Below, one piece after another: positions 295 through 49,188 of a DNA stretch of 64,000 nt. The stretch lies in contig JAVJQW010000017.1 in assembly GCA_040218735.1 (NCBI GenBank), positions 64,001 through 128,000 of the forward strand, in the 5' to 3' direction. This DNA comes from Deltaproteobacteria bacterium. GTDB lineage: Bacteria > Myxococcota > Kuafuiibacteriia > Kuafuiibacteriales > Kuafuiibacteriaceae. Below the pieces are notes generated by a model that was given only the letters and a program-made list of their open reading frames with translations, was not told where the DNA came from and made no database searches. The number at the start of each line of letters is the position of its first letter. Position 1 is the stretch's first letter. The position numbers and the translations under genes were made by a program.

Positions 295-1642
295 AGACGA
301 CGCCGAATTTGGCGCCATGGTCGGTGAGTGGTTGGACGCCGCTGGTCACGCCGCGCACACCACCCTCACCGCAGAGGATGCACTGAGAGTGTTGGGCGAA
401 GACACGTACGATGTCGTCATCGCTGACCTCAACCTCCACGGCGAGCTCGACGGCCTCGGCCTCTGCGAGCGCGTCGCCGCCGCGCACTCGGACGTGCCCG
501 TGATCGTCATGACCGCGTTTGGCAGCCTCGAGACCGCCGTCGGCGCGATCCGCGTCGGCGCCTACGACTTCGTCACGAAACCCGTCGAGCGCGGGCAGCT
601 CATGTTGTCCGTCGAGCGCGCTGCAACGCACCGCGCGCTGCAGCGTCAGGTCGCGCGGCTCGAGGAGCGACTCGCGGCCAAGAGCGCGACCGGGAGCATC
701 CTCGGTGAGAGCCCCGCCATGCAGCGGGTGTTCGAGCTCGTCGATCGGGTCGCGCAGGGCGACACGACCGTCCTCGTCACCGGCGAGAGCGGCACGGGCA
801 AGGAGCTGATCGCCCGCGCGCTGCACGAAGGAAGCCCGCGCAGCGAGGGGCCCTTCGTCGCCATCAACTGCGCCGCCCTCCCCGCCCCGCTGCTCGAGGC
901 CGAGCTGTTCGGCCACGCGGAGGGTGCGTTCACCGACGCTCGCGGCGAGCGACGCGGGCTCCTCGCGGAGGCCAACGGCGGCACGCTCTTCCTCGACGAG
1001 ATCGGCGAGATGTCGACGGACATGCAAGTGAAGTTGCTCCGCGCGCTGCAGGAGCGCACCTACCGACGCGTGGGCGGCACCGAAGAGATGAAGTTCGACG
1101 CGCGGCTGATCTCGGCGACGAACCGCGACCTCGAGAAGGAGGTCGCCGAGGGCCGATTCCGCGAAGACCTCTTCTACCGCATCAACGTCATCCGCATCCC
1201 GCTCCCCACGCTCGCGCAGCGCGGTCACGACATCCTGCTCCTCGCGCAGGCCTTCGTGGCCCGCGCCGCGAACCGCACTGGCAAGAACGTCGAAGGGATC
1301 GCGCGCGATGCTGCGCAACGCCTGTTGACGTACCCGTGGCCCGGCAACGTGCGTGAGCTCGAAAACTGCGTCGAATCCGCGGTGGCGATGACCGCGTACG
1401 ATCACATCGTGGTCGAGGACCTACCCGAGCGGATCCGGCGTCATCAGCCCGTCGAGGACCCCATCGAGACCTCGGACCCCACGCAGATGCCGACGCTCCG
1501 CGAGGTCGAGCAGCGCTACGTGATGAAGGTGCTCCGCGCCGTCGACAACAACAAGTCGGCCGCGGCTCGAATCTTGGGCTTCGATCGCCGTACACTCTAC
1601 CGGAAGCTCGACGCGTTCGAGCAGCAGGAGCGTCCGGGGTGA
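272..1642 (+). CDS. Sigma54-dependent response regulator (NtrC family: REC-AAA+-HTH Fis)
   Basis: AGGAGG RBS at 261-266; REC N-terminus; GESGTGKE Walker A; GAFTDA loop; LFLDEIG Walker B; WPGNVREL; C-terminal HTH. Confidence 0.95.
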
Positions 1643-2016
1643 GCCCGAGCAAACAAGTATGGGTGGTCGAGGACGACGACGACTTCCGCGAGATGCTGTC
1701 GGAGGTCCTTCGACTCGACGGGCTCGAGGTGACGGAGTTCGAGAGCGGTGCGCCGCTCCTGAACGCCGCGAAGCAAGAAGATCACCCCGCGCTGGTCGTC
1801 ACCGACCACCACATGCCCGACGTCAACGGGCTCGACGCGCTCGAGGCGCTGCAGGCGGACGGGTTCGCCGTCCCCACGGTGTTGGTGACGGCCTTCGCCG
1901 AGAGCACGGTGAAGAACCGCGCCGCCGCGGTGGGCGCGGTCTTGGTCGAGAAGCCGTGCGACATCTACGAGCTGCGGCGGATCATCCGCGCGGAGCTCGA
2001 CAAGACCTCGGCCTGA
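1639..2016 (+). CDS. Single-domain response regulator (REC)
   Basis: VVEDDDD, TDHHMP, VTAF and KP motifs; GTGA overlap with upstream gene. Confidence 0.9.
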   Translation: MSPSKQVWVVEDDDDFREMLSEVLRLDGLEVTEFESGAPLLNAAKQEDHPALVVTDHHMPDVNGLDALEALQADGFAVPTVLVTAFAESTVKNRAAAVGAVLVEKPCDIYELRRIIRAELDKTSA

Positions 2017-2059
2017 CGAGCCCCGCGAGGGCCGACTTCATCGGCGCCTCCTAGACCTC

Positions 2060-5000
2060 CTAGACGATCGGGACGCAGCGGCAGTCTGCGAAGTCACACG
2101 TCTCGTTCGGCGCACAGCCGCCGCAGTCCGCGGGACAGACACACTGGCACGAGTTGTTCGGGTCGCAGACCTCGTTGTTCTCACACGCCGAGTCACACGT
2201 CGGATCGCACTCGCAGGTGCAGGACGACGCATTGCACATCGTGCCGTCCGGGCAACCGCCGCAGTCCGTCGGACAGATGCAGGAGCAGTCCATCGTCGGG
2301 TCGCAGACCGACAGGCCCGGGCAGCTGTCGTTGCACGTCGGGTCGCAGGTGCAATCGCAGGTCGACGAGTTGCAGATCGTGTTGCCCTGGCAGGCGCCGC
2401 CGCAGTCGGTCGGGCACTCGCAGTTACACGTCGTGCTGTTGCAATTCAGGTTGCCGGTGCACTGGCCGCCGCACGTCGGGTCGCACTCACACGTGCACGT
2501 GCCCTGGTTGCAGACCGTCCCGTTGCCGCAGGCGCCGCCGCAGTCCGGCGCGCACTCGCAGGCACAGGTGTTCGGGTTGCAGACCTCGTTCGGGCCGCAG
2601 TTACCGTTGCAGTCCGGCGCGCACACGCAGTTGCAGTCCGCGTCGCACTCCTGGTTCGCGCCGCAGGCGTTGCAGATCGCCTGGTCGCAGACGCAGATAC
2701 CGAGCTGCGGATCGCAGTTCTGACCGACCTGACACGGCCCGCACGGATCGTCCGGCGGCTGCCAGTTCCGGTAGCTGATGACGACGAGGTCACCCTGCGC
2801 CGGGCGGAAGTTGAAGCCGCGGAAGAAGATCGAGTTCGACGCGGGGTCGTAGTCGAACCCGTTGTCGCGGTCACGCGGCACCGTCGTCACGGTCATCGAG
2901 CCCTGCGGCACCACACCCACGCGGATCGTCGAAGAGATCGGCGGACCGCTGAGCGTGTACTGCGAGGCGGCGCCCGCGACGGCGTCGATGATCGCCTGCA
3001 GCGCCTGGCCCGGCGAGTTGTTGCACGGCGAGTAGGACGCGCCCATCGTCGCCTGCACCACGTCGAGGTAGCCGCGCCCCGGCTCGTTCGCCGGCTGGTC
3101 GAGCGGACCGCCGCAGCCGTAGCCCGTGCACACCGTGGGCGTGCCGACCGGGATGACCTGCGCGAACGCGACACCATTGTTGTTGGTGATCGTGTTGATG
3201 TACGGCGTGAGGAGCGTGTCGATGCAGTTCTGCTGCGCCGTGTTCGGGACCGTCGAGCACGTGTTGTTGTTGTTCGTGACGTAGTAGTCGCCGACGCCGG
3301 TGTTGCAGGTCGGGTTGTAGCCGAAGCAGTTCTGCGCCGACTGCATCGTCAGCTCCTGCGGGTACTCGTCCGAGATGTAGACCACCGCGAGCACCGCGTC
3401 GGAGCGCAGGCGGCGCGGTTGCTCCACACCCGCCGCGGAACGCGGGAGCGCCTTGGCGATCGCGTTGTCCGCCGCCTCGAGCCCGAACTCACAGCCGTCG
3501 GATCCCGACGTGTCCTGCAGGTAGCTGGCGAACAGGTTCGGGTCGCGCACGAAGCCGGCGCCCCGGAGGTCACCGCCGTTGCCGGCGCCCTGGTTGTAGT
3601 CGTTCTCGCTGTGCGGGACGACGCCCATGCGGAAGTCGACGTTGTTCGCGGAGAGCGCCGCGACGATCGAGTTCGCCGCGGTGAAGATACGACCGCGGTC
3701 GTCGTCGGTGGAGCCCGAGATGTCCGCCATCCAGATGAAGTCCGCCACCGACTGACCGGCCGCGGTGAACGGGTCGCAGTCCTTGTCGCGCTCGGCGTTC
3801 GCGAGCGCGAGCGCGGTGCCGTTGGTGAGGTCCTGGATGAAGATCGCCGCGTTGTTCGTGACGTCGTCGTAGGTCGTGCGGTCCATCCCGCCGACCACGA
3901 CGATCAGCTCCTGCGGCATCGAGCGCAGCAGGACTTGGTACGTGAACGTGTGTTGGTTCGTCGGCGCGCCGGTCGCCGTCGGCAGCCCCGTGAACGACGC
4001 CCCGGGCAGCCCCGTGAACATGCGCACCATCGCGTTGCGCACCTGCGCCGCGTTCTGCGTGCCCGTCGTGACGGAGAGGTCGACGACGTTCGACACGTTC
4101 GTGTCGTAGCCGTCGTGCGACGTGATGATGCGCCCGGAGATCCGCTGCGCGTAGGAGAGGTTCTCGGCGCCGGCCGCCGCCTGGAGCTGCGACTCGATGG
4201 CGGCGGACTGCGCCTGAATCGTCGCCGCGCCCGCGAGGAGCGGCATCCGCAGCACGAAGCCCGAGATGTTCGCCGTGGTGTCGTCCACCGCGGCGACGTC
4301 GACGTTTGCGCTCGCCGGCGCGGTCGTGATCGCGGAGTACGTGAACGACAGCTCGGACGCGAGCGTCCACGAGGAGCCGACGTCGAAGTTCACCTGCTTG
4401 AGGTTCGCCGTCGAGCAGATCGCGTTGATGCCCGGCGCACTTCCGGCCGGCGGATCGTTCGGGTCGAGCGGATCGAAGCCGGCGAGGACCTCGTCGCCGT
4501 CGCTGATCATGTCGTTGTCGGTGTCGTCGTCGTTCGGATCGGTCTCACCGAGGCCCGGCTCGAAGAGGCCGTTCATGTTGCCGTCTTCGACGCCGTCCGC
4601 GAGGCCGTCGCCGTCGGTGTCCATGTCGAGCGGGTCCGTGACCGTGGTCGGGTCCTGGTCGAACGGCACGCCCATGCACGCGCTGCCCGGCACGCCCATC
4701 ACGACGCCGAGCTCGACGCCGTCGGAGACGCCGTCACCGTCGGTGTCGGGCACCAGCGGGCTCGTCATGTAGACGTTGAGCTCGTCGCCGTCGGAGAGCC
4801 CGTCGCAATCCGTGTCGGGATCGAGCGGGTTCGTCTCGAACACCTCGGTCATGCCGTTGTGGTTGGTGTCCTCTTCGCCGTCGCCGAGTGTGTCGCCGTC
4901 AGTGTCGACGACGAGCGGATCCGTCTCCGTCGGCTCGCGCATGCCGTTGCGGTTGGTGTCTTCGAGGCCGTCGGAGATGAGATCGCCGTCGGTGTCGCGC

Positions 5001-5683
5001 CGCGCGGGGTGCGTCTCGTTGGCGTCGCGGATGCCGTCGAGGTTCGCGTCCTCGATGTTGTCGGGGAGGCCGTCGCCGTCGGTGTCGACCGCGCGCGGGT
5101 TCGATTCGTCCGCGTCGAGGCGACCGTTCTGATCGAGATCCTCGAGGCCGTCGGGGATCATGTCGCCGTCGCTGTCGGCGTTGACGGGCGAAGTGGTCGT
5201 CGCGGGATCCGCATCCGCGATCGGCGGGCATCCGCTGCCCGGGACCGCCATGGTCACGCCGCGCTCGATGCCATCCGGGATACCGTCGTTGTCCGTGTCC
5301 GGATCGTTCGGATCCGTCTGCATCCCGTTGGGGTAGACGATCGAGAACTCTTGCGCGTCCGACAGCCCGTCGCAGTCGCTGTCGATCATGTCGTTGTTCG
5401 GGTTGTTCGGGTTCGCGCCGCCGTCGCGCGTGTTACCGCCGTCACGGTTTCCGCCGTCGACTTCACCGCCGTCGGGTACGGGGCCGCCGTCGCGGTTCGG
5501 ATCTTCGCCGCCGTCACGTTCGGGATCGACGCCCGTGTCGACGATGGTCTCGCCCGCGTCGCGCGGTGTGCCCATGCCGGGCGGATCTTCGCCGCAGCCG
5601 GAGCACGCGGGCATGAAACACGCGAGGAGCACGGCGATGCCGGCCCGCGGAATGAAGCTGGATGCTGCTGTCGTCCTGTGCAC
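2060..5683 (-). CDS. cglD: CglD-like gliding adhesin lipoprotein (Ca-binding DxDxDG repeats, vWA domain, Cys-rich repeats)
   Basis: Signal peptide with lipobox-type Cys; many DTDGDG repeats; MIDAS DISGS; about 9 Cys-rich 23-24 aa C-terminal repeats; architecture matches myxobacterial CglD as I recall it. Confidence 0.75.
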   Translation of the reverse strand: MHRTTAASSFIPRAGIAVLLACFMPACSGCGEDPPGMGTPRDAGETIVDTGVDPERDGGEDPNRDGGPVPDGGEVDGGNRDGGNTRDGGANPNNPNNDMIDSDCDGLSDAQEFSIVYPNGMQTDPNDPDTDNDGIPDGIERGVTMAVPGSGCPPIADADPATTTSPVNADSDGDMIPDGLEDLDQNGRLDADESNPRAVDTDGDGLPDNIEDANLDGIRDANETHPARRDTDGDLISDGLEDTNRNGMREPTETDPLVVDTDGDTLGDGEEDTNHNGMTEVFETNPLDPDTDCDGLSDGDELNVYMTSPLVPDTDGDGVSDGVELGVVMGVPGSACMGVPFDQDPTTVTDPLDMDTDGDGLADGVEDGNMNGLFEPGLGETDPNDDDTDNDMISDGDEVLAGFDPLDPNDPPAGSAPGINAICSTANLKQVNFDVGSSWTLASELSFTYSAITTAPASANVDVAAVDDTTANISGFVLRMPLLAGAATIQAQSAAIESQLQAAAGAENLSYAQRISGRIITSHDGYDTNVSNVVDLSVTTGTQNAAQVRNAMVRMFTGLPGASFTGLPTATGAPTNQHTFTYQVLLRSMPQELIVVVGGMDRTTYDDVTNNAAIFIQDLTNGTALALANAERDKDCDPFTAAGQSVADFIWMADISGSTDDDRGRIFTAANSIVAALSANNVDFRMGVVPHSENDYNQGAGNGGDLRGAGFVRDPNLFASYLQDTSGSDGCEFGLEAADNAIAKALPRSAAGVEQPRRLRSDAVLAVVYISDEYPQELTMQSAQNCFGYNPTCNTGVGDYYVTNNNNTCSTVPNTAQQNCIDTLLTPYINTITNNNGVAFAQVIPVGTPTVCTGYGCGGPLDQPANEPGRGYLDVVQATMGASYSPCNNSPGQALQAIIDAVAGAASQYTLSGPPISSTIRVGVVPQGSMTVTTVPRDRDNGFDYDPASNSIFFRGFNFRPAQGDLVVISYRNWQPPDDPCGPCQVGQNCDPQLGICVCDQAICNACGANQECDADCNCVCAPDCNGNCGPNEVCNPNTCACECAPDCGGACGNGTVCNQGTCTCECDPTCGGQCTGNLNCNSTTCNCECPTDCGGACQGNTICNSSTCDCTCDPTCNDSCPGLSVCDPTMDCSCICPTDCGGCPDGTMCNASSCTCECDPTCDSACENNEVCDPNNSCQCVCPADCGGCAPNETCDFADCRCVPIV

Positions 5684-5838
5684 GTCGGTTCCTCGACCCC
5701 GTCTACTCGCCTAGCACGGCCCTCGGCCGTTCGTCAGGATTCGAGCGACGTGTCCCCATTCTCCAGGGCAAGGGTCCGCGTTACAAATCGGTACTTTGCC
5801 GAAACCCTTGACCGTAAGGTCGAGCGGGCGCGGGGGGG

Positions 5839-7224
5839 CTAACGGGGGGGCGCGGGTGCCGCGGGTGCGACCTGGGGCTCGATCCGACGACTCGCGTCCC
5901 GGACGAGGCGCTCCGCCTCGGTCTTGCGGGTGAAACCAGGTACCCGGCTCGCACGATCCGCGAGACTCACACACACCTCGTACCGGCGCTGATCGCGCTC
6001 GAAGTAGGCCCAGCGGAGCAGGACTTCACCTTCGCTCGGCGTCCCACGGACCCGCTGCGTCGCCCGTCCGAAGATGCGGCGGGCGCTGTCGTACTGCTTG
6101 CGTGCAATCTCCTGCTCGGCGGCCTTCACCATCGCGGAGGCGAGGTTGGCGGCGCGTTGCGCCTCGGAGAGCCCGTCGTCGAGGGTCGCCGAGGCCCGGA
6201 GCTCCTTGTCCGCCTGGGCGCGAACCTCGGCCTTCGACGCGACCTTCGCCTCGGCGGGCGCCTCGGCGACCGGCGCCTCGTCGACCGACGGCGCCTCCTC
6301 GAAGCGCCGCTTGGCCCCGAGCGAGCGCACCGAGGGCTTCGCGGGGGTCGGCGTCGACGTCGGTCGTTTGGCGTCCGCGGTGTCCGCGGCGTCCAGCTTG
6401 GTCACCGCCTGGCGGGTCGACTCCCTCGCGATCGCGCCTTCGTCGGCGGGCGTCGCGGCCGACGGGCCGGCGGCCCCGCCGATCGGCAGGTCGGGCACGT
6501 CGGACGGGTCGGGCGCAGCGGCGCCGCCGCTCGCGGACCCGGTCGCGGGCGCCCGAGCGCTCTTCTTGGCCAACGCATCGAACGACGGGCTAGGCGGCGG
6601 CGGCGGCGGCGGGGGCTTGCGGGCCGCGCGCGCGCGTCGGCGCTTCGGCGTGCGGCGCGCCTCGTCCTCGCGGTCCCCGTCGATGTCGTCGGCGCGTTCG
6701 AAGCCGTCGCGCTCGAGCTTGGCCTTGTCGCCGAACGCCAACGCCTCCTCGGCTTCCTCGACGGGCTTCGGCTCGGGCGCCGGATCCTGCGCGGGGGCGT
6801 CTGCCGAGCGCGCCGACGCCGTGACGCCGGGCGGGATCGCCTCGGTCGTCGTCTGCGGCTCGGCCATGAAGCTGGTGACGTTCACGCTGACCACGGCGAC
6901 GACGGCGAGCGACGCCGCGGCGGCCAGGCCGAAGGCGGGGGTCAGGAGCAACTTGCGGAAGCGACCGAAGAACGACGACGCCTCGCGCTCCTCCTGGACG
7001 GCCTCGGCGGTCTGGCGAGCCGTGGCGAGGATCAGCGCGTCCAGGTGTTTCGACGGCTCCTCGTCCTCGAGCTCGCGCATGACGCCGAGCGTCTCCTCGA
7101 GCCCCTCCACCTGAGCGGACAGCGCGGCGTCCTCGGACATCGCCTGCTCGAAAGCACGCGCGTCCTCCTCGGACATCTCGTCGAACAGGTAGTCGACGAG
7201 CTGGCTGTCATCGTAACGGCTCAC
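5839..7224 (-). CDS. Membrane anti-sigma factor with C-terminal TPR-like domain
   Basis: N-terminal ASD-like helices (LVDYLFDEMS...), one TM helix, low-complexity linker, helical C-terminus; directly downstream of an ECF sigma gene. Confidence 0.75.
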   Translation of the reverse strand: MSRYDDSQLVDYLFDEMSEEDARAFEQAMSEDAALSAQVEGLEETLGVMRELEDEEPSKHLDALILATARQTAEAVQEEREASSFFGRFRKLLLTPAFGLAAAASLAVVAVVSVNVTSFMAEPQTTTEAIPPGVTASARSADAPAQDPAPEPKPVEEAEEALAFGDKAKLERDGFERADDIDGDREDEARRTPKRRRARAARKPPPPPPPPSPSFDALAKKSARAPATGSASGGAAAPDPSDVPDLPIGGAAGPSAATPADEGAIARESTRQAVTKLDAADTADAKRPTSTPTPAKPSVRSLGAKRRFEEAPSVDEAPVAEAPAEAKVASKAEVRAQADKELRASATLDDGLSEAQRAANLASAMVKAAEQEIARKQYDSARRIFGRATQRVRGTPSEGEVLLRWAYFERDQRRYEVCVSLADRASRVPGFTRKTEAERLVRDASRRIEPQVAPAAPAPPR

Positions 7225-18224: not shown

Positions 18225-18334
18225 CGGCCCCCCTGGCCCTTCGATCGGGTTCGACGCGCGGGGCTCGCTCGCGCCGGTGTCTTTTTTCGATCCGCCCCCG
18301 GTAATCGCCCCTCGCCGCATCGTAAGTTGAGGGT

Positions 18335-18967
18335 GTGGGGCCCCGAGAGGGAGTGGGATCGGAGGGCGTCAGCGTCGAGCGACGGCTCCTCCGCATCGTG
18401 CGGCGAGAACCGGCATCGCCGGGGGCCGTGCGGCGCGAAGGGCGAGCGATCGTCAACGAGATCTTCTTTGCGGTGCGGTGGATGGTTCGATCGAAGCTAC
18501 GCGTCTTTCGAACGCAGGCGATGGACGGGATGTCCGAGGAGGACCTCGTTTCCGAGATCGTCCTTGCGCTGATCGACGACGACTGCCGCGCGCTCGAGAA
18601 GTTCGATCCCGAGCGCGGCTCGTTGCGTTCGTTCGTCGCGACGTTCGCCGAGTGGAGGTGCGCCGACATCCACCGCCGCCACAGTCGGCGAGGGGATTTC
18701 GCGGAGCTCGAGAGTGCGCCCGAGCCTCGCGACCCGGCTTACAGCCCGGAGGATTTCGTGCGCGGTCGTCAGGCCGAGCGCGCCGTTCGCAAGCACGTCC
18801 TCTCGAACCTCTCCGCAAACGAACGGCTCGCCTTTGCCCGGTACTACGACGACGAGCTCCCGGGGCCAGAGTTCGCGCGAACGATGGCGTGGAGCCCTGC
18901 TCAGGTCTACCGGTTCACCTATCGCGTCCGGACGCTCGCACGCGCCTTCTTGAGGGACGACGCATGA
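18335..18967 (+). CDS. ECF-like sigma-70 factor (start approximate)
   Basis: Region 2 EDLVSEIVLAL...KFDPERGSLRSFV; region 4 helix-turn-helix; ATGA overlap with next gene. Confidence 0.8.
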   Translation: MGPREGVGSEGVSVERRLLRIVRREPASPGAVRREGRAIVNEIFFAVRWMVRSKLRVFRTQAMDGMSEEDLVSEIVLALIDDDCRALEKFDPERGSLRSFVATFAEWRCADIHRRHSRRGDFAELESAPEPRDPAYSPEDFVRGRQAERAVRKHVLSNLSANERLAFARYYDDELPGPEFARTMAWSPAQVYRFTYRVRTLARAFLRDDA

Positions 18968-21900
18968 GCAACGAACGGTCGGACCTCGAGCTGGACGCGC
19001 TGCTTCGCGAGACCCCCACGACGTCGGCGGTGTGCCTCGACGAGGCCGGCCCCGACTTCGACGCGATCGCGGCGAGGCACGAAGGCTCGCTCTCCCCCGA
19101 AGCGACGGAGACGCTGAGCGCCCACCTTCGAGACTGCCGGCTCTGCCGAGAGCTCGATCTGCAGTTCGCGGAGCTGACCGCGTCCGACCCGCTCGCCGAC
19201 GTCGACCCGGCGACGATCGACCGCGTGACGGAGGCCGTGGACCGACGCTTCGGGAGCCACGAGGACGTCGTGCAGCAGCTCGCGTCGCGCCCGCCACGCG
19301 CGCGTCCGCGGTGGCGGCACGCCATCGCCGCGGCCGTCGCCGCGGCGCTCGTCCTCTGCACCGTCACCTTCGTCTTTCTCCCCTCGCCCCCGGCCTACGA
19401 GATCCGCGTCGCGACGCGTGGACGACCGCTGGCCACCAGACGATCGCAGAGCGATGCGGCGGGGCCCCGTGACTCGGGGAAGTACGGGCCGCAGAGCATC
19501 CTGGCGTACGACGTCACGGTGTCGATGCCGCCCGGCGCGGCGGAGCCGGTCCTCCAAGTCTACGTCGAAGGGATCGACGGCCGGCTCACACGCGTCACGC
19601 CCTCGATCCAAACGAAGCTCGAGCGCGACGAAGTTCGCTACGTCGTCGAAGGTCGAGGCAGCGACTTCTTCGGTGAAGGCGCGGGTACCCGCTCCCTTTG
19701 GTTTGGAGTCGCGCCGTCGCCCGGTGCGTTCGGTGCGGTCGACGGCCAACGTCCCGATGCGCCGGGTTCCGACGACATTACATGGGCGCGTGTCGAAGCC
19801 GAGTACGTCATCGCCGCCGCGGTCGCGCCGCCGGAAGCCGCGCTGTTCGGGGCGCTGGCCACGGGTTGGTTCGCCGGAGCGCAGACGATGTTCTTCGACG
19901 CGACGCACCGACCTCGCGTTCGGCTCTCGGGTCGCGGCGCGTGGACCGTCAGCGTCGAGGACGACCGCGGAACACACGAGCTCGCGCGCGAGACGCTAGA
20001 CCGCTTGGACGATGCTCGGCACGTGGTCCTCGACCTCCCCTGGGTTGCGCCGCGCCGGGGGACACTGATCGCGGCGGCCGACGGCGTGGAGCGCCGACGT
20101 TGGGCGATCGTCTGGAACCCACTCGAACATCCTGACTTCGCGGGTCGATTCGAACCGCTCTACGCACGCGTGGACGAGGGTCGCGCGGCGTTTCGCGCGG
20201 GTCGTCGCGGCGACGCGGAGCGAGCCTGGCGGCGAGCCATCGAGTTGGCCGAAGCGGCGGGTGTCCTCAGCGAGGCGTCCCGACGCCGATCCGCGCTCGC
20301 GTACGTCGCGCTGAGCGACGATCGATTCGACGAAGCGCTGCGACTCCTCGAGGCGGCGCGCGCGGACGCCCGTAAGCTCGACTCGTCGAAGCTGTCCGCG
20401 GAAGCCGACTACTACGAAGCGCTCGTACACCTCGAACGGCGCGGCAACGGGGCGTTCGTCGCAGCCGAGCGATTGCTGCAGGCCGCCATCAGCTTTGCGG
20501 AGTACGAAGGCGACACGCGCCATCTGCAGCAGATCGTACAACCGCTCGTGACGCTCTGGTCGGAGTACGGGCGCGCGGCCGAGGCGGTGCGTTTGCTTCG
20601 ACGACACCCGCCACCGCCGGACGCAGACGACGTCGCCCGCGGACACTACTTCGGGAACCTCGCCGGCGCGCTGTACCACGCACACCGCACGGGCCAAATG
20701 ACGGTGGCGCGCGAGACGCTCCACGGCGCAGCGCAACGCGCGCTCCGCCACTTTCAGGCCAGCGGAACGAAGCAGTTCGAGGCGAACGTTCGCGCGCTCA
20801 TCGCACGCGCCTCCCTCGACGCCGACGACGAAGCGACGGCGCGTGCTCAGGTCGACGCGCTCCTGGCGATGACGAACGACGAGCGGACCGAAGTGCGTTG
20901 GGAGGTCCGGATGCTCGATGCGGAGCTTGCGCTGGCCGAGGGACGGCTGGAGGAAGCAAGCGAACGTCTGCTTTCGATCGAAGCCAACGCGCTCGAAGAA
21001 CACGACGGCGACGACTCCCGAGTGGCGTGCGCCGCGCGCGCGTTGCTCGGGCGCGTGCACGAGGAGGCGGGGCGCGCGGAGCGAGCGCGCGCCGACTATC
21101 TCGCCGCCACCCGACGTCTGCGTGCGCTGCGCAGGACGCTGGTGAGCGCGCCGGCCCAGGCCTCGATGCTCGCCGATGAGGCCGACCTGCATCGACGAAC
21201 GTTGGGGGCGCTCCTCGACGCCGGCCTCGTGGACCAAGCCGTCGAGCACGCGAGTCAGCGCCGCGCGGAGGTCCTGGTCGGCCTGGCGGGCGAGGACGCG
21301 CATGTCGAGGCGATGGACCTCGCGGCGATACGATCCAGGCTGGGGGACCGACGCGCCCTCGTCATCGCAGCGCGATCACACCGCGAACCCTTGAGCTTCT
21401 GGATCTCGAACACACAGGTCGACGTCGCGCGCGGCGACGACGTGCTGAAGCAGTGGGAGGCACGCGCGGCGACGGTCGACCACATCTACATCTCGCCGGG
21501 TGGCGAGCGCTGGGCGTTCGAGCTCGCGGTGCCTCCGGGCGGTGCCACGGTTTCTTGGGTTCCACACGCGGGCGTCGTCGGACGGAAGCGGACGAGCGCG
21601 GCTTCGGGTGCCGTCGTCGTCGCGGACCCGAACCGTGACCTCGCCTTTGCCGAGCGTGAGGGGCGCTCGGTCGCGTCTCGACGCACGGACTCCAAGCTCT
21701 TGATCCACGAGGGGGCTACGCGAGCGGCCGTCCTCGACTCGCTCGGCACCGTACGACTGTTTCACTTTGCCGGGCACGGTCAGGTCGGGCGGAACGATCC
21801 CTGGAGCGCTCGCCTTCGACTGGCGGACGGTGACCTGACGATTCATGACATCTTCGAAGCGCGTCCCGACGGCATTCACTTGGCCGTGCTCATCGGCTGC

Positions 21901-22134
21901 AGCACGGGTGAAGCCCAACGCGAAGGCTCGGATGGGTTGCCTCAGGCGCTACTCACCGCCGGGGTGAGGACTGTCGTCGCCAGCGTCGATGGGCTGGATG
22001 ACACACCCGAGCTCGGGCGGTTCGTGGCGGCCTTCTACGCGGCGGGCGGCGAAGAGACCCCGGGGGAGGCGTTCCGGATCGCGGCGGCTGCATCGCCGGC
22101 GGGTCGGTCGTTTCGACTCTGGGGTGAGCCTTAA
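18964..22134 (+). CDS. Zinc anti-sigma (HxxxCxxC)-TM-TPR-CHAT caspase-like protease fusion
   Basis: HLRDCRLC; hydrophobic AIAAAVAAALVLCTVTFVFL; TPR-like helices; CHAT motifs VADPNRDLAFAERE, HFAGHG, LIGCSTG. Confidence 0.85.
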   Translation: MSNERSDLELDALLRETPTTSAVCLDEAGPDFDAIAARHEGSLSPEATETLSAHLRDCRLCRELDLQFAELTASDPLADVDPATIDRVTEAVDRRFGSHEDVVQQLASRPPRARPRWRHAIAAAVAAALVLCTVTFVFLPSPPAYEIRVATRGRPLATRRSQSDAAGPRDSGKYGPQSILAYDVTVSMPPGAAEPVLQVYVEGIDGRLTRVTPSIQTKLERDEVRYVVEGRGSDFFGEGAGTRSLWFGVAPSPGAFGAVDGQRPDAPGSDDITWARVEAEYVIAAAVAPPEAALFGALATGWFAGAQTMFFDATHRPRVRLSGRGAWTVSVEDDRGTHELARETLDRLDDARHVVLDLPWVAPRRGTLIAAADGVERRRWAIVWNPLEHPDFAGRFEPLYARVDEGRAAFRAGRRGDAERAWRRAIELAEAAGVLSEASRRRSALAYVALSDDRFDEALRLLEAARADARKLDSSKLSAEADYYEALVHLERRGNGAFVAAERLLQAAISFAEYEGDTRHLQQIVQPLVTLWSEYGRAAEAVRLLRRHPPPPDADDVARGHYFGNLAGALYHAHRTGQMTVARETLHGAAQRALRHFQASGTKQFEANVRALIARASLDADDEATARAQVDALLAMTNDERTEVRWEVRMLDAELALAEGRLEEASERLLSIEANALEEHDGDDSRVACAARALLGRVHEEAGRAERARADYLAATRRLRALRRTLVSAPAQASMLADEADLHRRTLGALLDAGLVDQAVEHASQRRAEVLVGLAGEDAHVEAMDLAAIRSRLGDRRALVIAARSHREPLSFWISNTQVDVARGDDVLKQWEARAATVDHIYISPGGERWAFELAVPPGGATVSWVPHAGVVGRKRTSAASGAVVVADPNRDLAFAEREGRSVASRRTDSKLLIHEGATRAAVLDSLGTVRLFHFAGHGQVGRNDPWSARLRLADGDLTIHDIFEARPDGIHLAVLIGCSTGEAQREGSDGLPQALLTAGVRTVVASVDGLDDTPELGRFVAAFYAAGGEETPGEAFRIAAAASPAGRSFRLWGEP

Positions 22135-22385
22135 TCGTCGCCTTCGCCGCGAACGTACGCGCCCAAGACGTCCGAACGCGCCCACGCCTCGGCCAAAAAT
22201 GCACGCGCGTGACTCAAGTCATGTGCGGCAAAAGTGACGTACGCGTTGCGCTCACTAACTGGACCTTCGGGCAGGTCATCGGTGGCGCACCGATGGGTTT
22301 CCGCGAGCGAGCGAATCGCGGCGAGATCAGCCGAGCGCGTGATTCTGAGAACCACGGCCCAAACCTCCCGACTTGCGATCACCAT
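22131..22385 (-). CDS. 84-aa protein resembling a stand-alone subtilase prodomain
   Basis: Shares LGAYVR and overall pattern with the N-terminus of the neighbouring S8 protease; stop overlaps the CHAT gene stop. Confidence 0.6.
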   Translation of the reverse strand: MVIASREVWAVVLRITRSADLAAIRSLAETHRCATDDLPEGPVSERNAYVTFAAHDLSHARAFLAEAWARSDVLGAYVRGEGDD

Positions 22386-22543
22386 CTTTCGTTTTACCTC
22401 TTGTTTCGACAGTTCGGCCCGCCGCCGGCGCTCCTTGAGCTTCTTCCTTCGAAACTATTCCTCCCTTTGAGGGTCGCGTCCAATGCACTACGCTTCGCGG
22501 CCCCGGGCCACCCACGCGGCCCACGGGACGAGCCACGCACTGT

Positions 22544-23764
22544 ATGCACGAACCACGAGTCCTCATCGCCCGGTTCACTCCATCGGCCGCTCGTAACGCG
22601 GCGAACGCTCTGGAGAGAGAACGCGCCTATCTCACAGCGTTGTTCCCGGAGCTCGACGCCACGTACTTCAACGTGAGCTCGCAGGATGATCGGCCGCATG
22701 AGTTAGCCAAGATATGCCGGTCGATTCACGGGTGCCTGGGTGCGTACGTGCGAAGTGCGCCGCGGCCGGCTTCGATGCCCATGCATCATCGTGATGCACA
22801 ACGGCACCTCGATGCCGCGCCCGGGCTCGGCGTGTCGTCTCTGTGGAAGGCACCCGGCGGCAACGGACAAGGCGTTCGCGTACTCATCTATGACTACGCG
22901 ATCGACGAGGACCACGTTTGTTTCCAGCACGGACTCACTTCGATCGACTCGGTCAAACGTTCCGATCCGAAGCTGCGCGATCACGGCACCGCCGTCGCGG
23001 GGGTCGTGGGCGCGAGGCAGGTGCCGAACGGTTCTCTGCCGCGCGGCGTTTCGGGGTGCGCTCCGGGCGCGTCGATGATCTTCTTCGCCGTCTCACGCGG
23101 ACGAATGCAGTGCAGCGACCTGTGGAAGGCCCACGACCAGCTCGAAGAGGGAGACATCCTCCTCCTCCCGCAGACCGCTCGACTCGATACGAACGTCGCG
23201 GGTGCGCCCACGTTCCCGTGGGTTCCTCTCGAGTGGTTTCCGGACATGCAGATACCGATCGAGGCGATGACGAAGAAGGGCATCATCGTGGTGCAAGCCG
23301 CCGGTAACGACGATGCCAACCTCGACGATCCCCTGTTCGACGCGCCACCGAAGCCCGGGCATTTTCCCAGCTGGCGCAACCCGTTCAGCGTCGCCCGCGG
23401 GAGCGGACCGAGCTCGATCATCGTGGGTGCTTCCCATGTCGACATTCAGCAGGGTCGGATGCCGTACTCCAACTTCGGTCGCTGCGTCGACGTGCAAGGC
23501 TGGGGTGAGAACGTCGTGACGTGCGGCTACGGTGACCTCGAGGACCCGGGCGATCCGCACTGCCGGTTCACCGCGGCGTTCTCCGGCACCTCGGCGGCGG
23601 CCGCGATGATCGCCGGCACGCTCGCCTGCTTGCAGGGCGTCCGAAAGGTCGACCCGAGTAAGGGGTACATCACCCCTGCGAATGCGCGCGCGGTCTTGCT
23701 GACGCACGCGACGAAGGCTCCCGCTTCTTACGAGCCGATCGGGGACCGGCCGGACTGGGGCTAG
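22544..23764 (+). CDS. S8 subtilisin-like serine protease, no signal peptide
   Basis: Triad YDYAID / HGTAVAG / SGTSAAA and oxyanion AAGN. Confidence 0.9.
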   Translation: MHEPRVLIARFTPSAARNAANALERERAYLTALFPELDATYFNVSSQDDRPHELAKICRSIHGCLGAYVRSAPRPASMPMHHRDAQRHLDAAPGLGVSSLWKAPGGNGQGVRVLIYDYAIDEDHVCFQHGLTSIDSVKRSDPKLRDHGTAVAGVVGARQVPNGSLPRGVSGCAPGASMIFFAVSRGRMQCSDLWKAHDQLEEGDILLLPQTARLDTNVAGAPTFPWVPLEWFPDMQIPIEAMTKKGIIVVQAAGNDDANLDDPLFDAPPKPGHFPSWRNPFSVARGSGPSSIIVGASHVDIQQGRMPYSNFGRCVDVQGWGENVVTCGYGDLEDPGDPHCRFTAAFSGTSAAAAMIAGTLACLQGVRKVDPSKGYITPANARAVLLTHATKAPASYEPIGDRPDWG

Positions 23765-25043
23765 CCTCTCCCAAGAACGGCGACGCAACCCTGTACCCGC
23801 GGCGCGGGACGTTCTCGAACGGCATCGGGAAGCCCTCGCGCTCGATTCGCGCACGAATCTGCTGGAGTGCAGAGCGAATCGCGGTGTCGGTCACTACGCC
23901 GCAGGCGTCCTTGAGGGCGGCGACGCTCACGGGTTCACCTCGGGCCTGCAAGAGGCAGCAGAGGATGCGCCAGTTCGTGCCTCGGAAGGTCAGCACCCGA
24001 CCGCTGTCCGTGACGATACCGCGGCTGTTCGGGCGCGCGGGATCGGGCTGGAGGCCAGGCGAGCCCTCCGCCGATGGCGGGGTTGGCGTCGCTGGGTTCC
24101 CTTGGGGTCGCGGCGCCGGCGCCTCCAGCGGGCGCGCTCGTGCGGCTTGCGCGAGCGGGTCGTGGACTGTTTCGGCATCCAAGCGCTTCCGTAGCTCGGA
24201 CGCGACGAGCTTGTGCGTCACGCTCGGAGCGACCAAGCGCAGCCGTCCGGCGTCGTGACGCAGCAGCCCACAGCGGAGCAGCGGCTGGATGGCCTCATCG
24301 GCGGGGTCACATTTTTCGGTCCCGTCGTCGAGGACCGAGACGAGCGCCCCGACGGACGCGCGTGCGTACTCGAACACCCAGGCCACCGCGTCCGCGACGT
24401 AGCTCGTCGCGTTGAGTCGCAGGTAATTCGAGAGCTGATCGTAGTCGCCGAAGAGCTCGGATCGTCGTGATGCGCGCGCGAGGAGCGTGGGGTGACCGTC
24501 GGTCGCGCCGAACACGTTCGTCCACACGTCTTCGGAGAGCTTCCCCATCAGGTCGGTGAGCGCAGCTCGGGTGTCGTCCACCGTCGGGAGGTCCATGAAG
24601 TAGCGATCGAACTGGTGGATCTCGTTCTGCCGCCGATTCACCCAGTCGCGCTCGGGATCGTCGTTGCCGATCGCACGTTCGGCGACGTCGTCGCGTGACA
24701 AGCGCGAGGTCGCGACGAGGCGTGCGTCGGGGATCGAGCGCAGTGTCTTCTCGAGTCGAGCGTCGTAGAGGATGTCGAAGTCATCGACGAGGAGCGTGTC
24801 GGTGCCGCGTGCGCTTCGACACCATTCGGCGATCTCCTGTCCGGCTCCGGGGTCGCCACCCATCACGAGCGTCGCACCCTCCGAGCGCGACAGGGCGCGC
24901 AGGAGCGACGTCTTCCCCATACCCGGCGCGCCCTGCACGAAGTGACGACCGGGACGCAGCGCGGGCTCCGGTCCGTCCGATCGGGACCACGAAGGAGGCC
25001 GGAGCTTGGCGACGAGGGGTCGATGAAGGATCTCGAACTTCAT
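23670..25043 (-). CDS. STAND-like P-loop ATPase with C-terminal OmpR-type winged helix
   Basis: GAPGMGKT, LLVDDFD, GHP motif; C-terminal ENVPRRGYR. Confidence 0.8.
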   Translation of the reverse strand: MKFEILHRPLVAKLRPPSWSRSDGPEPALRPGRHFVQGAPGMGKTSLLRALSRSEGATLVMGGDPGAGQEIAEWCRSARGTDTLLVDDFDILYDARLEKTLRSIPDARLVATSRLSRDDVAERAIGNDDPERDWVNRRQNEIHQFDRYFMDLPTVDDTRAALTDLMGKLSEDVWTNVFGATDGHPTLLARASRRSELFGDYDQLSNYLRLNATSYVADAVAWVFEYARASVGALVSVLDDGTEKCDPADEAIQPLLRCGLLRHDAGRLRLVAPSVTHKLVASELRKRLDAETVHDPLAQAARARPLEAPAPRPQGNPATPTPPSAEGSPGLQPDPARPNSRGIVTDSGRVLTFRGTNWRILCCLLQARGEPVSVAALKDACGVVTDTAIRSALQQIRARIEREGFPMPFENVPRRGYRVASPFLGEASPSPAGPRSARKKREPSSRASARPRAHSQG

Positions 25044-25156
25044 GTGCAGAACGCGCGGTAATATATAGGCATATGTATCCATTCGCCAGTATGTGACGAG
25101 AGAATACACCTCCGTTCACAGAAACGGGGCAGTGTGGGGGGCAGCACTCCGGCCTT

Positions 25157-25549
25157 TCAGCGGATTTCCAGGGGGACCTCGAAGGACTCGGAGCCCTCGA
25201 ACTTGAGGAGGCACGACGTCGCGGCGGCGGCCTGGTCGGGGCGCGGCTCGCCGGCCCACAGGTGCTCTTCGTCGAACGTGGACGGCACGTCCAAGCCGAT
25301 GCTCCAAGAGGCGGTCCCGTTTTCGCATTCGACGGTGAGTGAGGTCGGCGAGAAGGCCTCGTAGTCGCCACCGGGCTTCAGAACGATGTCGACGGTGTCG
25401 TAGACGAGATCTTCCAGGAGGGAGCCCTCGCAGGTCGGGCAGGGGTGCGTGGTCGCGTCGGTCGTGACGGCGAGCTCCTCCGTGGGGGGCGCGCACGCAA
25501 AACCGAACAGGGCGGCGGAGAGGATGAGGACGAGTCTGTGTGTATGCAT
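25157..25549 (-). CDS. Small hypothetical lipoprotein
   Basis: Lipobox GFAC; CPTC plus two further Cys. Confidence 0.65.
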   Translation of the reverse strand: MHTHRLVLILSAALFGFACAPPTEELAVTTDATTHPCPTCEGSLLEDLVYDTVDIVLKPGGDYEAFSPTSLTVECENGTASWSIGLDVPSTFDEEHLWAGEPRPDQAAAATSCLLKFEGSESFEVPLEIR

Positions 25550-25692
25550 ATATTTTTATATTGATACATGTATATCACTCGGCAAGGATCGGATCCCCTC
25601 GTTGGGCAAAGATCGTCGTCGAATCACCACAGTCGTCGTCGAAGCGCCCGGGTCTGGGGCCTCGATGTGTCACAACGCGCCGGAATCAGGGC

Positions 25693-25708
25693 TGGCCTGG
25701 GCCTTGCT
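25693..25708 (+). promoter_or_regulatory. Sigma54 -24/-12 promoter
   Basis: TGGCCTGGGCCTTGCT (GG-N10-GC), 15 bp before ATG 25724. Confidence 0.6.
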
Positions 25709-25723
25709 GTGGGGTCGCCCACG

Positions 25724-26506
25724 ATGCGGATAGCCCAGACGCTCCTAGCCCTCTCCCTCGCCGCTGGATCCTTCGCGTGCGGCGCCACCTCCGACGGTCA
25801 GATCGGCGAAAACGGCGAAGTGCGGTTCTCGCTGGTCGTCGACTTCATCGACAACGCGAGCATCGACGACGACGTCGCCACCCACCGGACGCTGTTCGTC
25901 GCCATGCAGCACCCGAAGCGCGGCTTCCTCGACGACGAGACCTACACGAAGCTCTCCCTGCAGGTTCGCAACGAGGACGGCGAGCTCGTCTCGTCCGTCT
26001 TCCCGCTCGGGTTCGCGCAGTACGGTGTCGTGTTCGAGCAGGCCGGTCGCTACAAGCTCGTGGCGATGGACGGCGGCACGCAGCTCGACGCGTTCTCGAT
26101 CAACGTGCGCGACGTCGACGACATCGCGCTGTCACGCCGCGTCGTGGTGAGCACGACCTACGAAGACGACAACGGCGACACGTGCGCGCGCGTGCAAGAG
26201 CTCGACGGCATCGAGAACGTCGTCCTGCACGAGAACCAGAGCGTGCAGATGTTCGTCGTCCCGCGGGCCTCCGACGGCGCCGACCTCATCGGCTTCCTCG
26301 CCCTCACCGGCGACGGTCCGGACAGCGTCATCCTCCACTCGCCGTTGGTCGGTCAGGGGCGTCGCGCGAACAGCCTGATCGTCACGCCCGACAGCACGAT
26401 GACCCCGTCGATCCGCGTGGTCATCGAGGACGCCGACGGCGGGCACCGCATCGACGTCGAGCTGCCGACCAAGAACGAGCCCTTCGAGCTCGACTGCAGT
26501 GACTAG
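25724..26506 (+). CDS. Hypothetical beta-rich lipoprotein
   Basis: Lipobox SFAC; high GC3 codon usage. Confidence 0.75.
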   Translation: MRIAQTLLALSLAAGSFACGATSDGQIGENGEVRFSLVVDFIDNASIDDDVATHRTLFVAMQHPKRGFLDDETYTKLSLQVRNEDGELVSSVFPLGFAQYGVVFEQAGRYKLVAMDGGTQLDAFSINVRDVDDIALSRRVVVSTTYEDDNGDTCARVQELDGIENVVLHENQSVQMFVVPRASDGADLIGFLALTGDGPDSVILHSPLVGQGRRANSLIVTPDSTMTPSIRVVIEDADGGHRIDVELPTKNEPFELDCSD

Positions 26507-44417: not shown

Positions 44418-45170
44418 CTACGATGCGAGGCGCGCGGACTCGGGGAGCGGCACGAAGTCCTCGCGCTCGAACGGAGGCGCCTCGAACGGCCAGGGGCCGG
44501 CCAGGTGGCAGAGCACGCGCTGCTGCACCGGAGCGGGCGGCGCGTTGATCGTGACCGCCTTCGCCTCGAGCTCCACCGGCTCGGCGAGGAGCCGGACGAG
44601 ATCCGGCGCGTAATAACGCGGGACGAACCCGATCCGCACCCCCTCGGCGCGCACCGCGACCGCGTTGGGATCGTCGGCGTTGGCAGCGTCGTGTTCGAGG
44701 GACAGCAACGTCCCCGGCGTGAGCGACGCCGCGAGCGACTGCGCATCGGCGGAGCGGTGCCGAAGGCCGTGCACGAAGAAGTCGATGTCGAAGAGACCGG
44801 TTTTGTCGTCGATCGGGAACGGGAACACTTCGAACGAATCGGTCGTCCGACGCCCGAGGCTGCGCGCGAGGATCGACAGCGGGTCCGCGTCGGCGCCTTC
44901 GAGATCGAGGCGCCGCAGGTACGCCGTGAACTCCTCGCGCGAGCGCGACATGATGCGGTTGTTGAACATCGGGAACAGCGTCGGCGCGCGATACACCCGA
45001 CTCGTGTCCGGGAAGCCGGGGAGCGGTCGCAGCCCGGCGCGCGCGTGGGCGTCCTCGTAGCCGCGCACGTAGAGGTACTCGAAGCCCCCTTCCCCGTGGC
45101 GAAGCCGCCCGATGGGGAACCATTGGCGGGATACGTGATCCTGCCAAGCGAGGAAGAGCGTCGTCACCAC
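44418..45170 (-). CDS. HipS/HipA-N-like + HIRAN domain protein
   Basis: N-terminal LFLAWQD...IGRL...FEYLY and LFPMFNNRI; HIRAN LEHDAANADDPNAVAV...IGFVPR. Confidence 0.8.
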   Translation of the reverse strand: MVTTLFLAWQDHVSRQWFPIGRLRHGEGGFEYLYVRGYEDAHARAGLRPLPGFPDTSRVYRAPTLFPMFNNRIMSRSREEFTAYLRRLDLEGADADPLSILARSLGRRTTDSFEVFPFPIDDKTGLFDIDFFVHGLRHRSADAQSLAASLTPGTLLSLEHDAANADDPNAVAVRAEGVRIGFVPRYYAPDLVRLLAEPVELEAKAVTINAPPAPVQQRVLCHLAGPWPFEAPPFEREDFVPLPESARLAS

Positions 45171-46084: not shown

Positions 46085-46092
46085 AGAATGAT

Positions 46093-49185: not shown

Positions 49186-49188
49186 GCC

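Follow-up and report, generated by a model that had tools for sequence, protein, structure and literature searches.

We analysed a stretch of 64,000 nucleotides (nt) of DNA (hereafter the window: positions 64,001 to 128,000, forward strand, of contig JAVJQW010000017.1 in assembly GCA_040218735.1) from a myxococcote bacterium of the family Kuafuiibacteriaceae, whose genome measures 11.6 Mb and contains approximately 70 per cent G+C. Six genes lie together at positions 18335–25549 of the window, all of them real, and encode a sigma factor of the extracytoplasmic function (ECF) type, an anti-sigma–CHAT fusion protein, a small protein, an S8 subtilase, a STAND-like ATPase with a winged helix-turn-helix (wHTH) domain, and a lipoprotein. 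We consider it probable, at roughly 0.6, that the functional core of this locus is a transmembrane switch of the DdvS/DdvA type, representing a fused form of a four-gene module found elsewhere in the same genome, to which the S8 subtilase and the small open reading frame (ORF) are only possibly linked. The architecture of this core, an ECF sigma factor next to a zinc-binding anti-sigma (ZAS) domain that is joined through a transmembrane (TM) helix to TPR and CHAT domains, has already been described, and the neighboring S8 and ATPase are not shown to belong to it.

An earlier reading made from the letters of the window (the sequence-only reading) had listed the ECF sigma, CHAT, S8, ATPase-wHTH, and lipoprotein genes, and the coordinates, Pfam and NCBIfam matches, and alignment motifs bear out its six-gene list in essence. 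Its proposal of a CRISPR-independent control of the adjacent ECF sigma factor by the CHAT protease also accounts best for the first two genes. Its two larger claims found no support. A single proteolytic cascade of six genes is at odds with the different predicted compartments of the proteins, with the use of both DNA strands, and with the distributions of the S8 and ATPase families, which showed no link to the switch outside close relatives. Nor is the core of the locus without a match among described systems, as the combination of an ECF sigma factor and a ZAS-TM-TPR-CHAT protein is that of DdvS/DdvA (PMC11506125), and DdvA is the top Foldseek match.

The sigma factor and the anti-sigma–CHAT fusion protein

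The sigma factor gene (18335–18967, forward strand) encodes 210 amino acids (aa) when read from the first GTG, although the true start may lie later. Its product matches TIGR02937 (E-value = 1.1e-12) and Sigma70_r2, and its best match in the PDB is the ECF sigma factor 9isn_F (E-value = 3.3e-14). Sigma genes that are 28–36 per cent identical to it were found by tblastn at six other places in the genome, five of which lie within approximately 4 kb of a CHAT match, and the window protein aligns with 11 sigma factors of the four-gene module described below. The fusion gene (18964–22134, forward strand; 1056 aa; CHAT match with E-value = 1.5e-19) follows directly, with an ATG that overlaps the sigma stop codon by 4 nt.

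At its N-terminus, the fusion protein carries a predicted ZAS domain with the pattern Cys24...His54-x3-Cys58-x2-Cys61. The first 140 residues align with stand-alone anti-sigma factors of this genome and its relatives at 24–37 per cent identity, and His54, Cys58, and Cys61 are invariant in all seven aligned anti-sigma N-termini. When compared to the PDB, a profile of this region matches the ZAS anti-sigma factors RslA (E-value = 6.3e-6) and ChrR (E-value = 1.7e-5). The protein has a single hydrophobic segment (residues 121–139, with a helix modelled at 118–132), which is preceded by an Arg-rich stretch. By the positive-inside rule, we infer that the C-terminal part, including the CHAT domain, lies outside the cytoplasm, in the periplasm.

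In an AlphaFold2 model built from 34 sequences (predicted local distance difference test [pLDDT] score of 79.9, with low-confidence N-terminal helices), the TM helix at approximately residues 118–139 is followed by two beta-sandwich domains (146–384), a TPR region (393–778), and the CHAT domain (786–1056). The catalytic His938 and Cys979 of the CHAT domain are invariant in all 34 aligned sequences. Among PDB structures, Foldseek ranks DdvA first and second for this model (8rw5, E-value = 7.7e-13; 8rot_A, E-value = 3.4e-12), followed by the TPR-CHAT protein of craspase and by separase. Similarly, the best CHAT match of the fusion sequence profile is DdvA (8rot_B, E-value = 1.5e-11, versus 2e-9 for craspase). 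In VIA-align comparisons, DdvA, craspase, and separase all reach Z scores of 22–27, and the DdvA score of 22.9 extends over model residues 309–1054.

The published account describes DdvA as a transmembrane anti-sigma factor whose zinc domain lies in the cytoplasm and whose TPR-CHAT portion, of approximately 900 residues, is periplasmic, reports that truncated DdvA is cut by RseP, and places in the ddvS-ddvA operon two more genes, for an unknown protein and a C25-type peptidase (PMC11506125). DdvA also assembles as an arrow-shaped dimer, and its CHAT domain lacks a three-helix motif. By analogy, the zinc-binding N-terminal domain of the fusion protein would keep the window sigma factor in the cytoplasm, and the periplasmic part (beta-sandwich domains, TPR, and CHAT) would act as both sensor and protease. 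Under the DdvA model, an envelope signal would activate the His/Cys site of the CHAT domain, and the periplasmic domain would be clipped off. An RseP-type site-2 protease could then cut within the membrane, and degradation of the cytoplasmic remnant would free the sigma factor. RseP-type M50 peptidases are present in the genome. Because the anti-sigma and CHAT domains form one polypeptide, the protease would be tethered to its presumed substrate.

Several observations count against this reading of the locus. The likeness to DdvA is low, at 16 per cent identity, and a phmmer search with the single fusion sequence finds no PDB match, DdvA included. The N-terminal profile of the fusion protein matches the N-terminal domain of DdvA only with an E-value of 0.09. 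In VIA-align, craspase (Z = 26.7) and separase (Z = 24.8) score above DdvA. For DdvA itself, the CHAT autoproteolysis (in trans) is only proposed in its published description (PMC11506125). No promoter motif is common to 14 module operon upstream regions or to the gap upstream of the window S8 gene, and in the 14 module regions neither a canonical ECF motif nor a bipartite motif nor any 7-mer exceeds shuffled controls. Finally, a link between the S8 subtilase and the switch is neither shown nor excluded.

The four-gene module and the second protease

The four-gene module consists of genes for an ECF sigma factor, an anti-sigma factor, an exported TPR-CHAT lipoprotein, and an exported S8 lipoprotein. 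ORF calling combined with Pfam searches identified six complete sets in this genome (L013 and L015–L019). Their TPR-CHAT proteins span 844–1383 aa in the ORF calls, of which the longest probably begins too early, their anti-sigma factors are zf-HC2 proteins of approximately 250 aa with one TM helix, and their S8 proteins are 635–784 aa long. Read by eye, a signal ending in Cys is present in all six module S8 proteins and in all five module CHAT proteins with an informative N-terminus. Across the genome, which has approximately 25 S8 genes, an S8 match lies no more than 4 kb away from 10 of 21 CHAT matches: one at the window locus and the others at nine further places.

To assess relatives, we built module profiles from the copies in this genome and scanned them over 20 loci fetched around relatives' CHAT hits; several of the loci lacking the full module end at contig edges. 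All four module genes are present in nine of the 20 loci (L036, L037, L039, L041–L044, L047, and L049), and two further loci hold CHAT and S8 genes. Four of the nine complete modules have the order sigma, anti-sigma, CHAT, S8, which is that of the window, and a complete module occurs in G030, a member of another family. The sequence-only reading had expected homologs of its genes to co-localize, and CHAT, sigma, anti-sigma, and S8 genes do so widely, but the window's own type of S8 and its ATPase were not found to do so outside close relatives. According to a review, proteolytic control was proposed for group ECF54 on the ground that carboxypeptidase, subtilase, and CHAT proteins are conserved around its genes (PMC8999054).

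By homology of its sigma factor, ZAS domain, and CHAT domain to those of the module, the core of the window locus reads as a fused form of the module. It differs in that anti-sigma and CHAT domains form a single polypeptide, whereas the module has a separate anti-sigma factor and an exported CHAT lipoprotein, and in that the window S8 is of another family and carries no lipoprotein signal. We also observed a paralogous sigma/anti-sigma/TPR-CHAT locus in the same genome (L014; C56:1-13000, 506–7180) that has no S8 gene and in whose place an M48 peptidase fused to TerB is encoded.

The window S8 gene (22544–23764, forward strand; 406 aa) matches Peptidase_S8 with an E-value of 1.7e-20, beginning at residue 108. 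The protein has no signal peptide, and an N-terminal prodomain-like region of approximately residues 1–80 is contained within it. The module S8 profile scores it at only 10.3 bits. We retrieved 1235 relatives at E-values of 1e-3 or below, and the 118 relatives listed from outside its own clade are 31–39 per cent identical. The named sources of the listed relatives span several phyla, and the family includes one archaeal metagenome-assembled genome (MAG). Most relatives, too, lack a signal peptide and have in common an N-terminal stretch of approximately 80–100 residues that ends in '...VEAAYVKP'. By these relationships, the window S8 belongs to a broad family and is not of the module type. We considered a frameshifted or truncated S8 gene and ruled it out, since all 119 relatives aligned to the DNA do so in a single frame and homology extends to the N-terminal region.

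Residues His147, Asn255, and Ser350 of the S8 are invariant in all 31 sequences compared. The aspartate column of the family (Asp in 29 of 31 sequences) is occupied by Ile115 in the window protein, and the Asp117 of the window protein sits at a column that holds Glu in 30 of 31. We take Asp117 to have the canonical spacing of the S8 motif. Protease activity is thus likely, but not certain. The sequence-only reading had described both proteases as having intact catalytic motifs; this stands for the CHAT dyad and for the His and Ser of the S8, and is ambiguous for the S8 aspartate. As a separate observation, the family motif 'IIDIEG' places an Asp two residues before the canonical Asp position, and a near-invariant Glu at that position.

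The genomic surroundings of the S8 family do not resemble those of the module. Among the 80 nearest relatives in species-representative genomes, none has a module sigma or anti-sigma gene nearby, and the 80 loci yield one weak CHAT/TPR match and one weak P-loop match. The eight closest matches in related genomes are 452–964 aa long, three of them with DUF4215 or PKD domains, and stand in unrelated contexts; none of the eight has a CHAT, sigma, or ATPase gene beside it. We roughly estimate the chance of finding a non-module S8 beside one of approximately 11 CHAT loci at 0.03.

A conserved small ORF of no known function (22131–22385, reverse strand; 84 aa) lies between the two protease genes, converging on the CHAT gene and pointing away from the S8 gene. 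The 158 nt that part the divergent small ORF and S8 gene (22386–22543) have no coding-like frame and presumably hold promoters. The G+C content of the small ORF by codon position (0.67/0.50/0.66) is coding-like apart from its low value at third positions. Its exact sequence occurs in the protein collection, where its cluster has four members from four assemblies that are 88–99 per cent identical, and because of this conservation across four assemblies, we regard it as a real gene. The most distant member is 88 per cent identical, and in the same genome the CHAT, S8, and ATPase proteins are 77, 79, and 75 per cent identical, respectively. In one relative, the CHAT, S8, and ATPase proteins have consecutive accession numbers, in that order, an indication that gene calling in that genome placed nothing protein-coding between the first two.

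The sequence-only reading had taken the small protein for a protease inhibitor or free prodomain, an idea for which we found no significant support. The protein matches no Pfam or PADLOC family. Against two prodomain profiles it scores approximately 4 bits, with an hhalign probability of 3.3 per cent, and the likeness is confined to a C-terminal motif (the protein ends in '...VLGAYVRGE') and is not significant. Moreover, a free-prodomain profile built from S8-family loci and searched against all six frames of the whole window gives the small ORF an E-value of 4.1 and finds nothing significant.

Elsewhere in the S8 family, 28 of the 80 loci have, directly upstream of the S8 match and in the same orientation, a free ORF of approximately 90 aa (called lengths of 82–204 aa) that resembles the N-terminal region of the S8 proteins ('...LxPxHPGxxDP...VEAAYxKP'). 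The family itself comes from many bacterial phyla and one archaeal MAG. The pairing looks like a two-gene cassette of prodomain plus protease, judging from the sequences, and we found no description of such a cassette in the literature on CHAT, ECF, and subtilase contexts.

The ATPase regulator, the lipoprotein, and the setting of the locus

The STAND-like P-loop NTPase-wHTH gene (23670–25109, reverse strand) encodes 479 aa from its first start, and gene callers use Met23, giving 457 aa. Its Pfam matches are weak and below cut-off (AAA_16, E-value = 0.0015; Trans_reg_C, E-value = 0.0075). A family alignment of 43 sequences shows a Walker A motif (GxxGxGK[T/S]), a Walker B motif (hhhDD), the motif GGHPxL, and a C-terminal wHTH of the OmpR/PhoB type. 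A profile search of 1.84 billion representative proteins found 50 relatives at E-values of 1e-3 or below, nearly all of 420–480 aa, some of which match Pfam nSTAND models, below cut-off only. For an AlphaFold2 model with pLDDT of 84.6, Foldseek retrieves the archaeal Walker ATPase 2qen, RuvB, RFC, Cdc6/ORC, and the nucleotide-binding domains of plant NLR proteins (E-values of approximately 1e-6 to 2e-5), and ESM Atlas clusters labelled 'nSTAND + Trans_reg_C' score 0.92. From alignment and model, the protein is best described as a rare, putative STAND-like regulator.

The ATPase has no paralogue in the genome. The 40 relatives searched hold nothing beyond one partial wHTH match, and 401 genomes of the phylum hold no full-length relative besides this genome's own copy, the other matches there covering part of the P-loop domain or of the wHTH. 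Ten candidates of approximately 440 aa from the phylum were rejected as family members, as their P-loop lies in the middle. ATPase orthologues occur only in three close genomes that also hold CHAT orthologues, and outside these three relatives we found no link of the ATPase to CHAT or S8. A metagenome scan with the relative P0139 found nothing, and neither did a search of the literature for nSTAND-wHTH regulators of this kind. One distant relative, P0161, carries an N-terminal TIR/SEFIR domain (TIR_2, E-value = 8.3e-21), a hint that at least some members may have a role in conflict. The S8 and ATPase genes converge, and their 3' ends overlap by 95 nt (23670–23764). The ATPase has a disordered C-terminal tail that its three orthologues have kept, probably because the opposite strand codes for the S8 end there.

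The strand that carries the ATPase gene also encodes, upstream of it, a lipoprotein of no known family (25157–25549, reverse strand; 130 aa), whose signal sequence, read by eye, ends in Cys. It has no Pfam, NCBIfam, or PADLOC match and no paralogue in the genome. Its exact sequence occurs in five contigs of the protein collection, alongside one near-identical member. Divergent from this gene, an ORF at 25568–26506 has a lipoprotein-like signal ('...LAAGSFAC'; internal Met at residue 53) and matches no Pfam, NCBIfam, or PADLOC family.

The sequence-only reading had noted more A/T-ending codons in the six genes than in the flanks. This is true of the sigma, CHAT, S8, and ATPase genes, whose G+C contents at third codon positions (GC3) are 0.81, 0.81, 0.79, and 0.785, compared to 0.88–0.94 in flanking genes. 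Ranked among the 5097 coding-like ORFs of this genome that are 300 aa or longer, these values fall at the 5th–11th percentile. The lipoprotein gene does not share the depression (GC3 of 0.878, 40th percentile) and is ordinary in this respect. The depressed GC3 common to the four genes fits joint acquisition.

A 32-kb contig of another metagenome is colinear with the whole of 18300–25600, with 101 differences and no gaps; of the 30 differences within the CHAT gene among the 40 of 152 rows listed, 19 are at third codon positions. The six genes stay together in four related genomes, down to approximately 75 per cent protein identity, and in two relatives that are more distant, orthologues of CHAT, S8, and ATPase are found on the same contigs. 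Because the four genomes are close kin, their shared gene order counts as one observation.

Because the six genes occupy both strands and run in converging directions, they cannot form a single operon; their orientation requires at least three, and probably four, transcription units. Scans of the region for sigma-70 promoter-like sites found none, a result not above shuffled controls, and four terminator-like sites were found, compared to 3.9 expected from shuffles. A GC-rich hairpin followed by a T-run at 18256–18290, between the gene for a response regulator with GGDEF and the sigma gene, may be a terminator separating the two, although such sites are no more frequent in the region than in shuffled controls.

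The flanks encode housekeeping and ordinary signaling proteins (OmpA-like, the GGDEF response regulator, alpha/beta hydrolase, EVE, MiaE, DsbA, Der, Era, cyclophilin, and MnmA) and do not make a defense island. With PADLOC-DB 2.0, the locus yields only PDLC03014 'subtilase' (E-value = 2.5e-11) and mad8 (E-value = 0.0016); no PADLOC model matches the sigma, CHAT, lipoprotein, or small-ORF proteins, and the check that the sequence-only reading had suggested thus returns no named anti-phage system at the locus. None of the 42 window ORFs scanned with PADLOC (7 + 35) matches Cas or CBASS models. Farther along the window, the adjacent ORFs at 44418–46234 and 47113–49188 match the candidate system PDC-M03 strongly (B, 8e-77; A, 5.4e-99), and a 691-aa ORF approximately 900 nt beyond this pair, with a 290-aa ORF in between, has Pycsar-cyclase-like and TIR-like matches (approximately 1e-15 to 1e-22). 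We found no description of the six-gene combination in the literature on CHAT, ECF, and subtilase contexts (supplementary tables not covered).

Alternative explanations and comparison with known systems

In the reading we prefer, a DdvS/DdvA-type switch with neighbors, the signal-less S8 and its small divergent partner would fill the slot of the module's second protease from a separate transcription unit, possibly as a member of the sigma regulon or by acting at a step in the cytoplasm. A third unit is made up of the lipoprotein and the STAND-wHTH regulator, and we found no evidence tying that unit to the switch. A second protease that recurs and is exchangeable (S8 lipoprotein, M48, C25, and signal-less S8) argues for some link of the S8. 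This bears on the main alternative, in which the locus comprises three unrelated neighbors that are adjacent by history only: a DdvS/DdvA-like switch, a self-contained cassette of small protein and S8 of a widespread family, and a lipoprotein with a STAND-type regulator. We consider this alternative unlikely, though deserving of attention. It agrees with the multi-copy nature of the sigma and CHAT families in the genome, with the spread of the S8 family over many phyla and one archaeon in unrelated contexts, with the rarity of an ATPase family not found in relatives, and with the strands and intergenic gaps that part the units. However, from the module one would expect an S8 gene right behind that for CHAT, a chance adjacency is unlikely with only some 25 S8 genes in 11.6 Mb (by the rough estimate above), and the depressed GC3 of four genes fits joint acquisition.

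We find it improbable that the six genes together make up a single system for conflict or cell death, in which the STAND protein senses, CHAT frees the sigma factor, and a subtilase effector is released from a free prodomain acting as its inhibitor. The close kinship of the four genomes deprives their shared six-gene order of much of its weight, and the S8 relatives, whether the 80 nearest or the eight closest in related genomes, stand apart from the genes of the switch, as does an ATPase with no full-length relative in the phylum. A direct cascade from CHAT to S8 or ATPase is further disfavored because CHAT is predicted to be periplasmic and the S8 and ATPase have no export signals and should be cytoplasmic; for the S8, its place in a transcription unit of its own and the unrelated spread of its family also count against it. 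With at least three transcription units, housekeeping flanks, a PADLOC result limited to a generic subtilase and a weak mad8, and no significant prodomain likeness in the small ORF, little is left to hold the six genes together beyond their co-occurrence in kin, the low GC3 of four of them, the position of the S8 where the module S8 normally stands, the TIR domain of P0161, the conservation of the small ORF, and the free prodomain-like ORFs upstream of 28 of 80 S8-family genes. Slightly less probable still is a two-compartment proteolytic response, possibly abortive infection, without CRISPR or a cyclic nucleotide, in which the S8, its small partner, and the STAND-wHTH protein would be the cytoplasmic arm of the CHAT switch, with the freed sigma factor turning on, or the STAND protein gating, a subtilase kept in check by the prodomain-like protein.

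Among known systems, MalT and AfsR are STAND-type transcription regulators. Like such regulators, the window ATPase appears to combine a P-loop NTPase, which has Walker A and B motifs and GGHPxL as its GxP-like motif, with a module of helical and winged-helix parts and an output domain that binds DNA, but it has only approximately 450 aa, no repeat sensor domain, and an OmpR-type wHTH at the C-terminus. Craspase (type III-E Cas7-11 with the TPR-CHAT protein Csx29, its substrate Csx30, and an ECF sigma factor) resembles the window switch in its TPR-CHAT fold, with the highest VIA-align score, and in its logic, with a CHAT protease releasing an ECF sigma factor from an anti-sigma-like protein. 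In contrast to the cytoplasmic, RNA-guided CHAT of craspase, that of the window is predicted to be periplasmic and is fused to the anti-sigma domain; no cas genes were detected at the window, and identity is 10–12 per cent.

The closest counterpart is DdvS/DdvA of Myxococcus xanthus (PMC11506125; PMC6061681; PDB 8rot, 8rw5, and 8rlz). Both loci have an ECF sigma gene directly upstream of a gene for a single-pass anti-sigma factor, in which an N-terminal zinc-binding domain is joined to a periplasmic part of approximately 900 residues that ends in TPR-CHAT with a His-Cys dyad, and both have a further peptidase gene in the cluster (C25-type in ddv, S8 at the window). They differ in that the window's second peptidase is a signal-less S8 in its own transcription unit, and in that the M. 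xanthus pair controls an adjacent CBASS/type III-B CRISPR island, whereas none was detected among the 42 window ORFs; such an island may be a property of the M. xanthus locus and not a defining feature of the family. As the core architecture is already known, the practical value of the window locus is modest. Nevertheless, among anti-sigma factors that carry a caspase-like domain in the periplasm, DdvS/DdvA is so far the only studied case, and its signal and cleavage step are not known. The second protease is swapped among these loci, with an unrelated signal-less S8 at the window, an M48 peptidase in the paralogous locus, and a C25-type peptidase in M. xanthus, a pattern suggesting that such switches need a partner protease but that one kind can stand in for another. 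Here, the fused, DdvA-like form and the split, four-gene form coexist in one genome and share the ancestry of their sigma, ZAS, and CHAT parts, and they provide natural pairs for testing whether CHAT cleaves the anti-sigma factor in cis or in trans.

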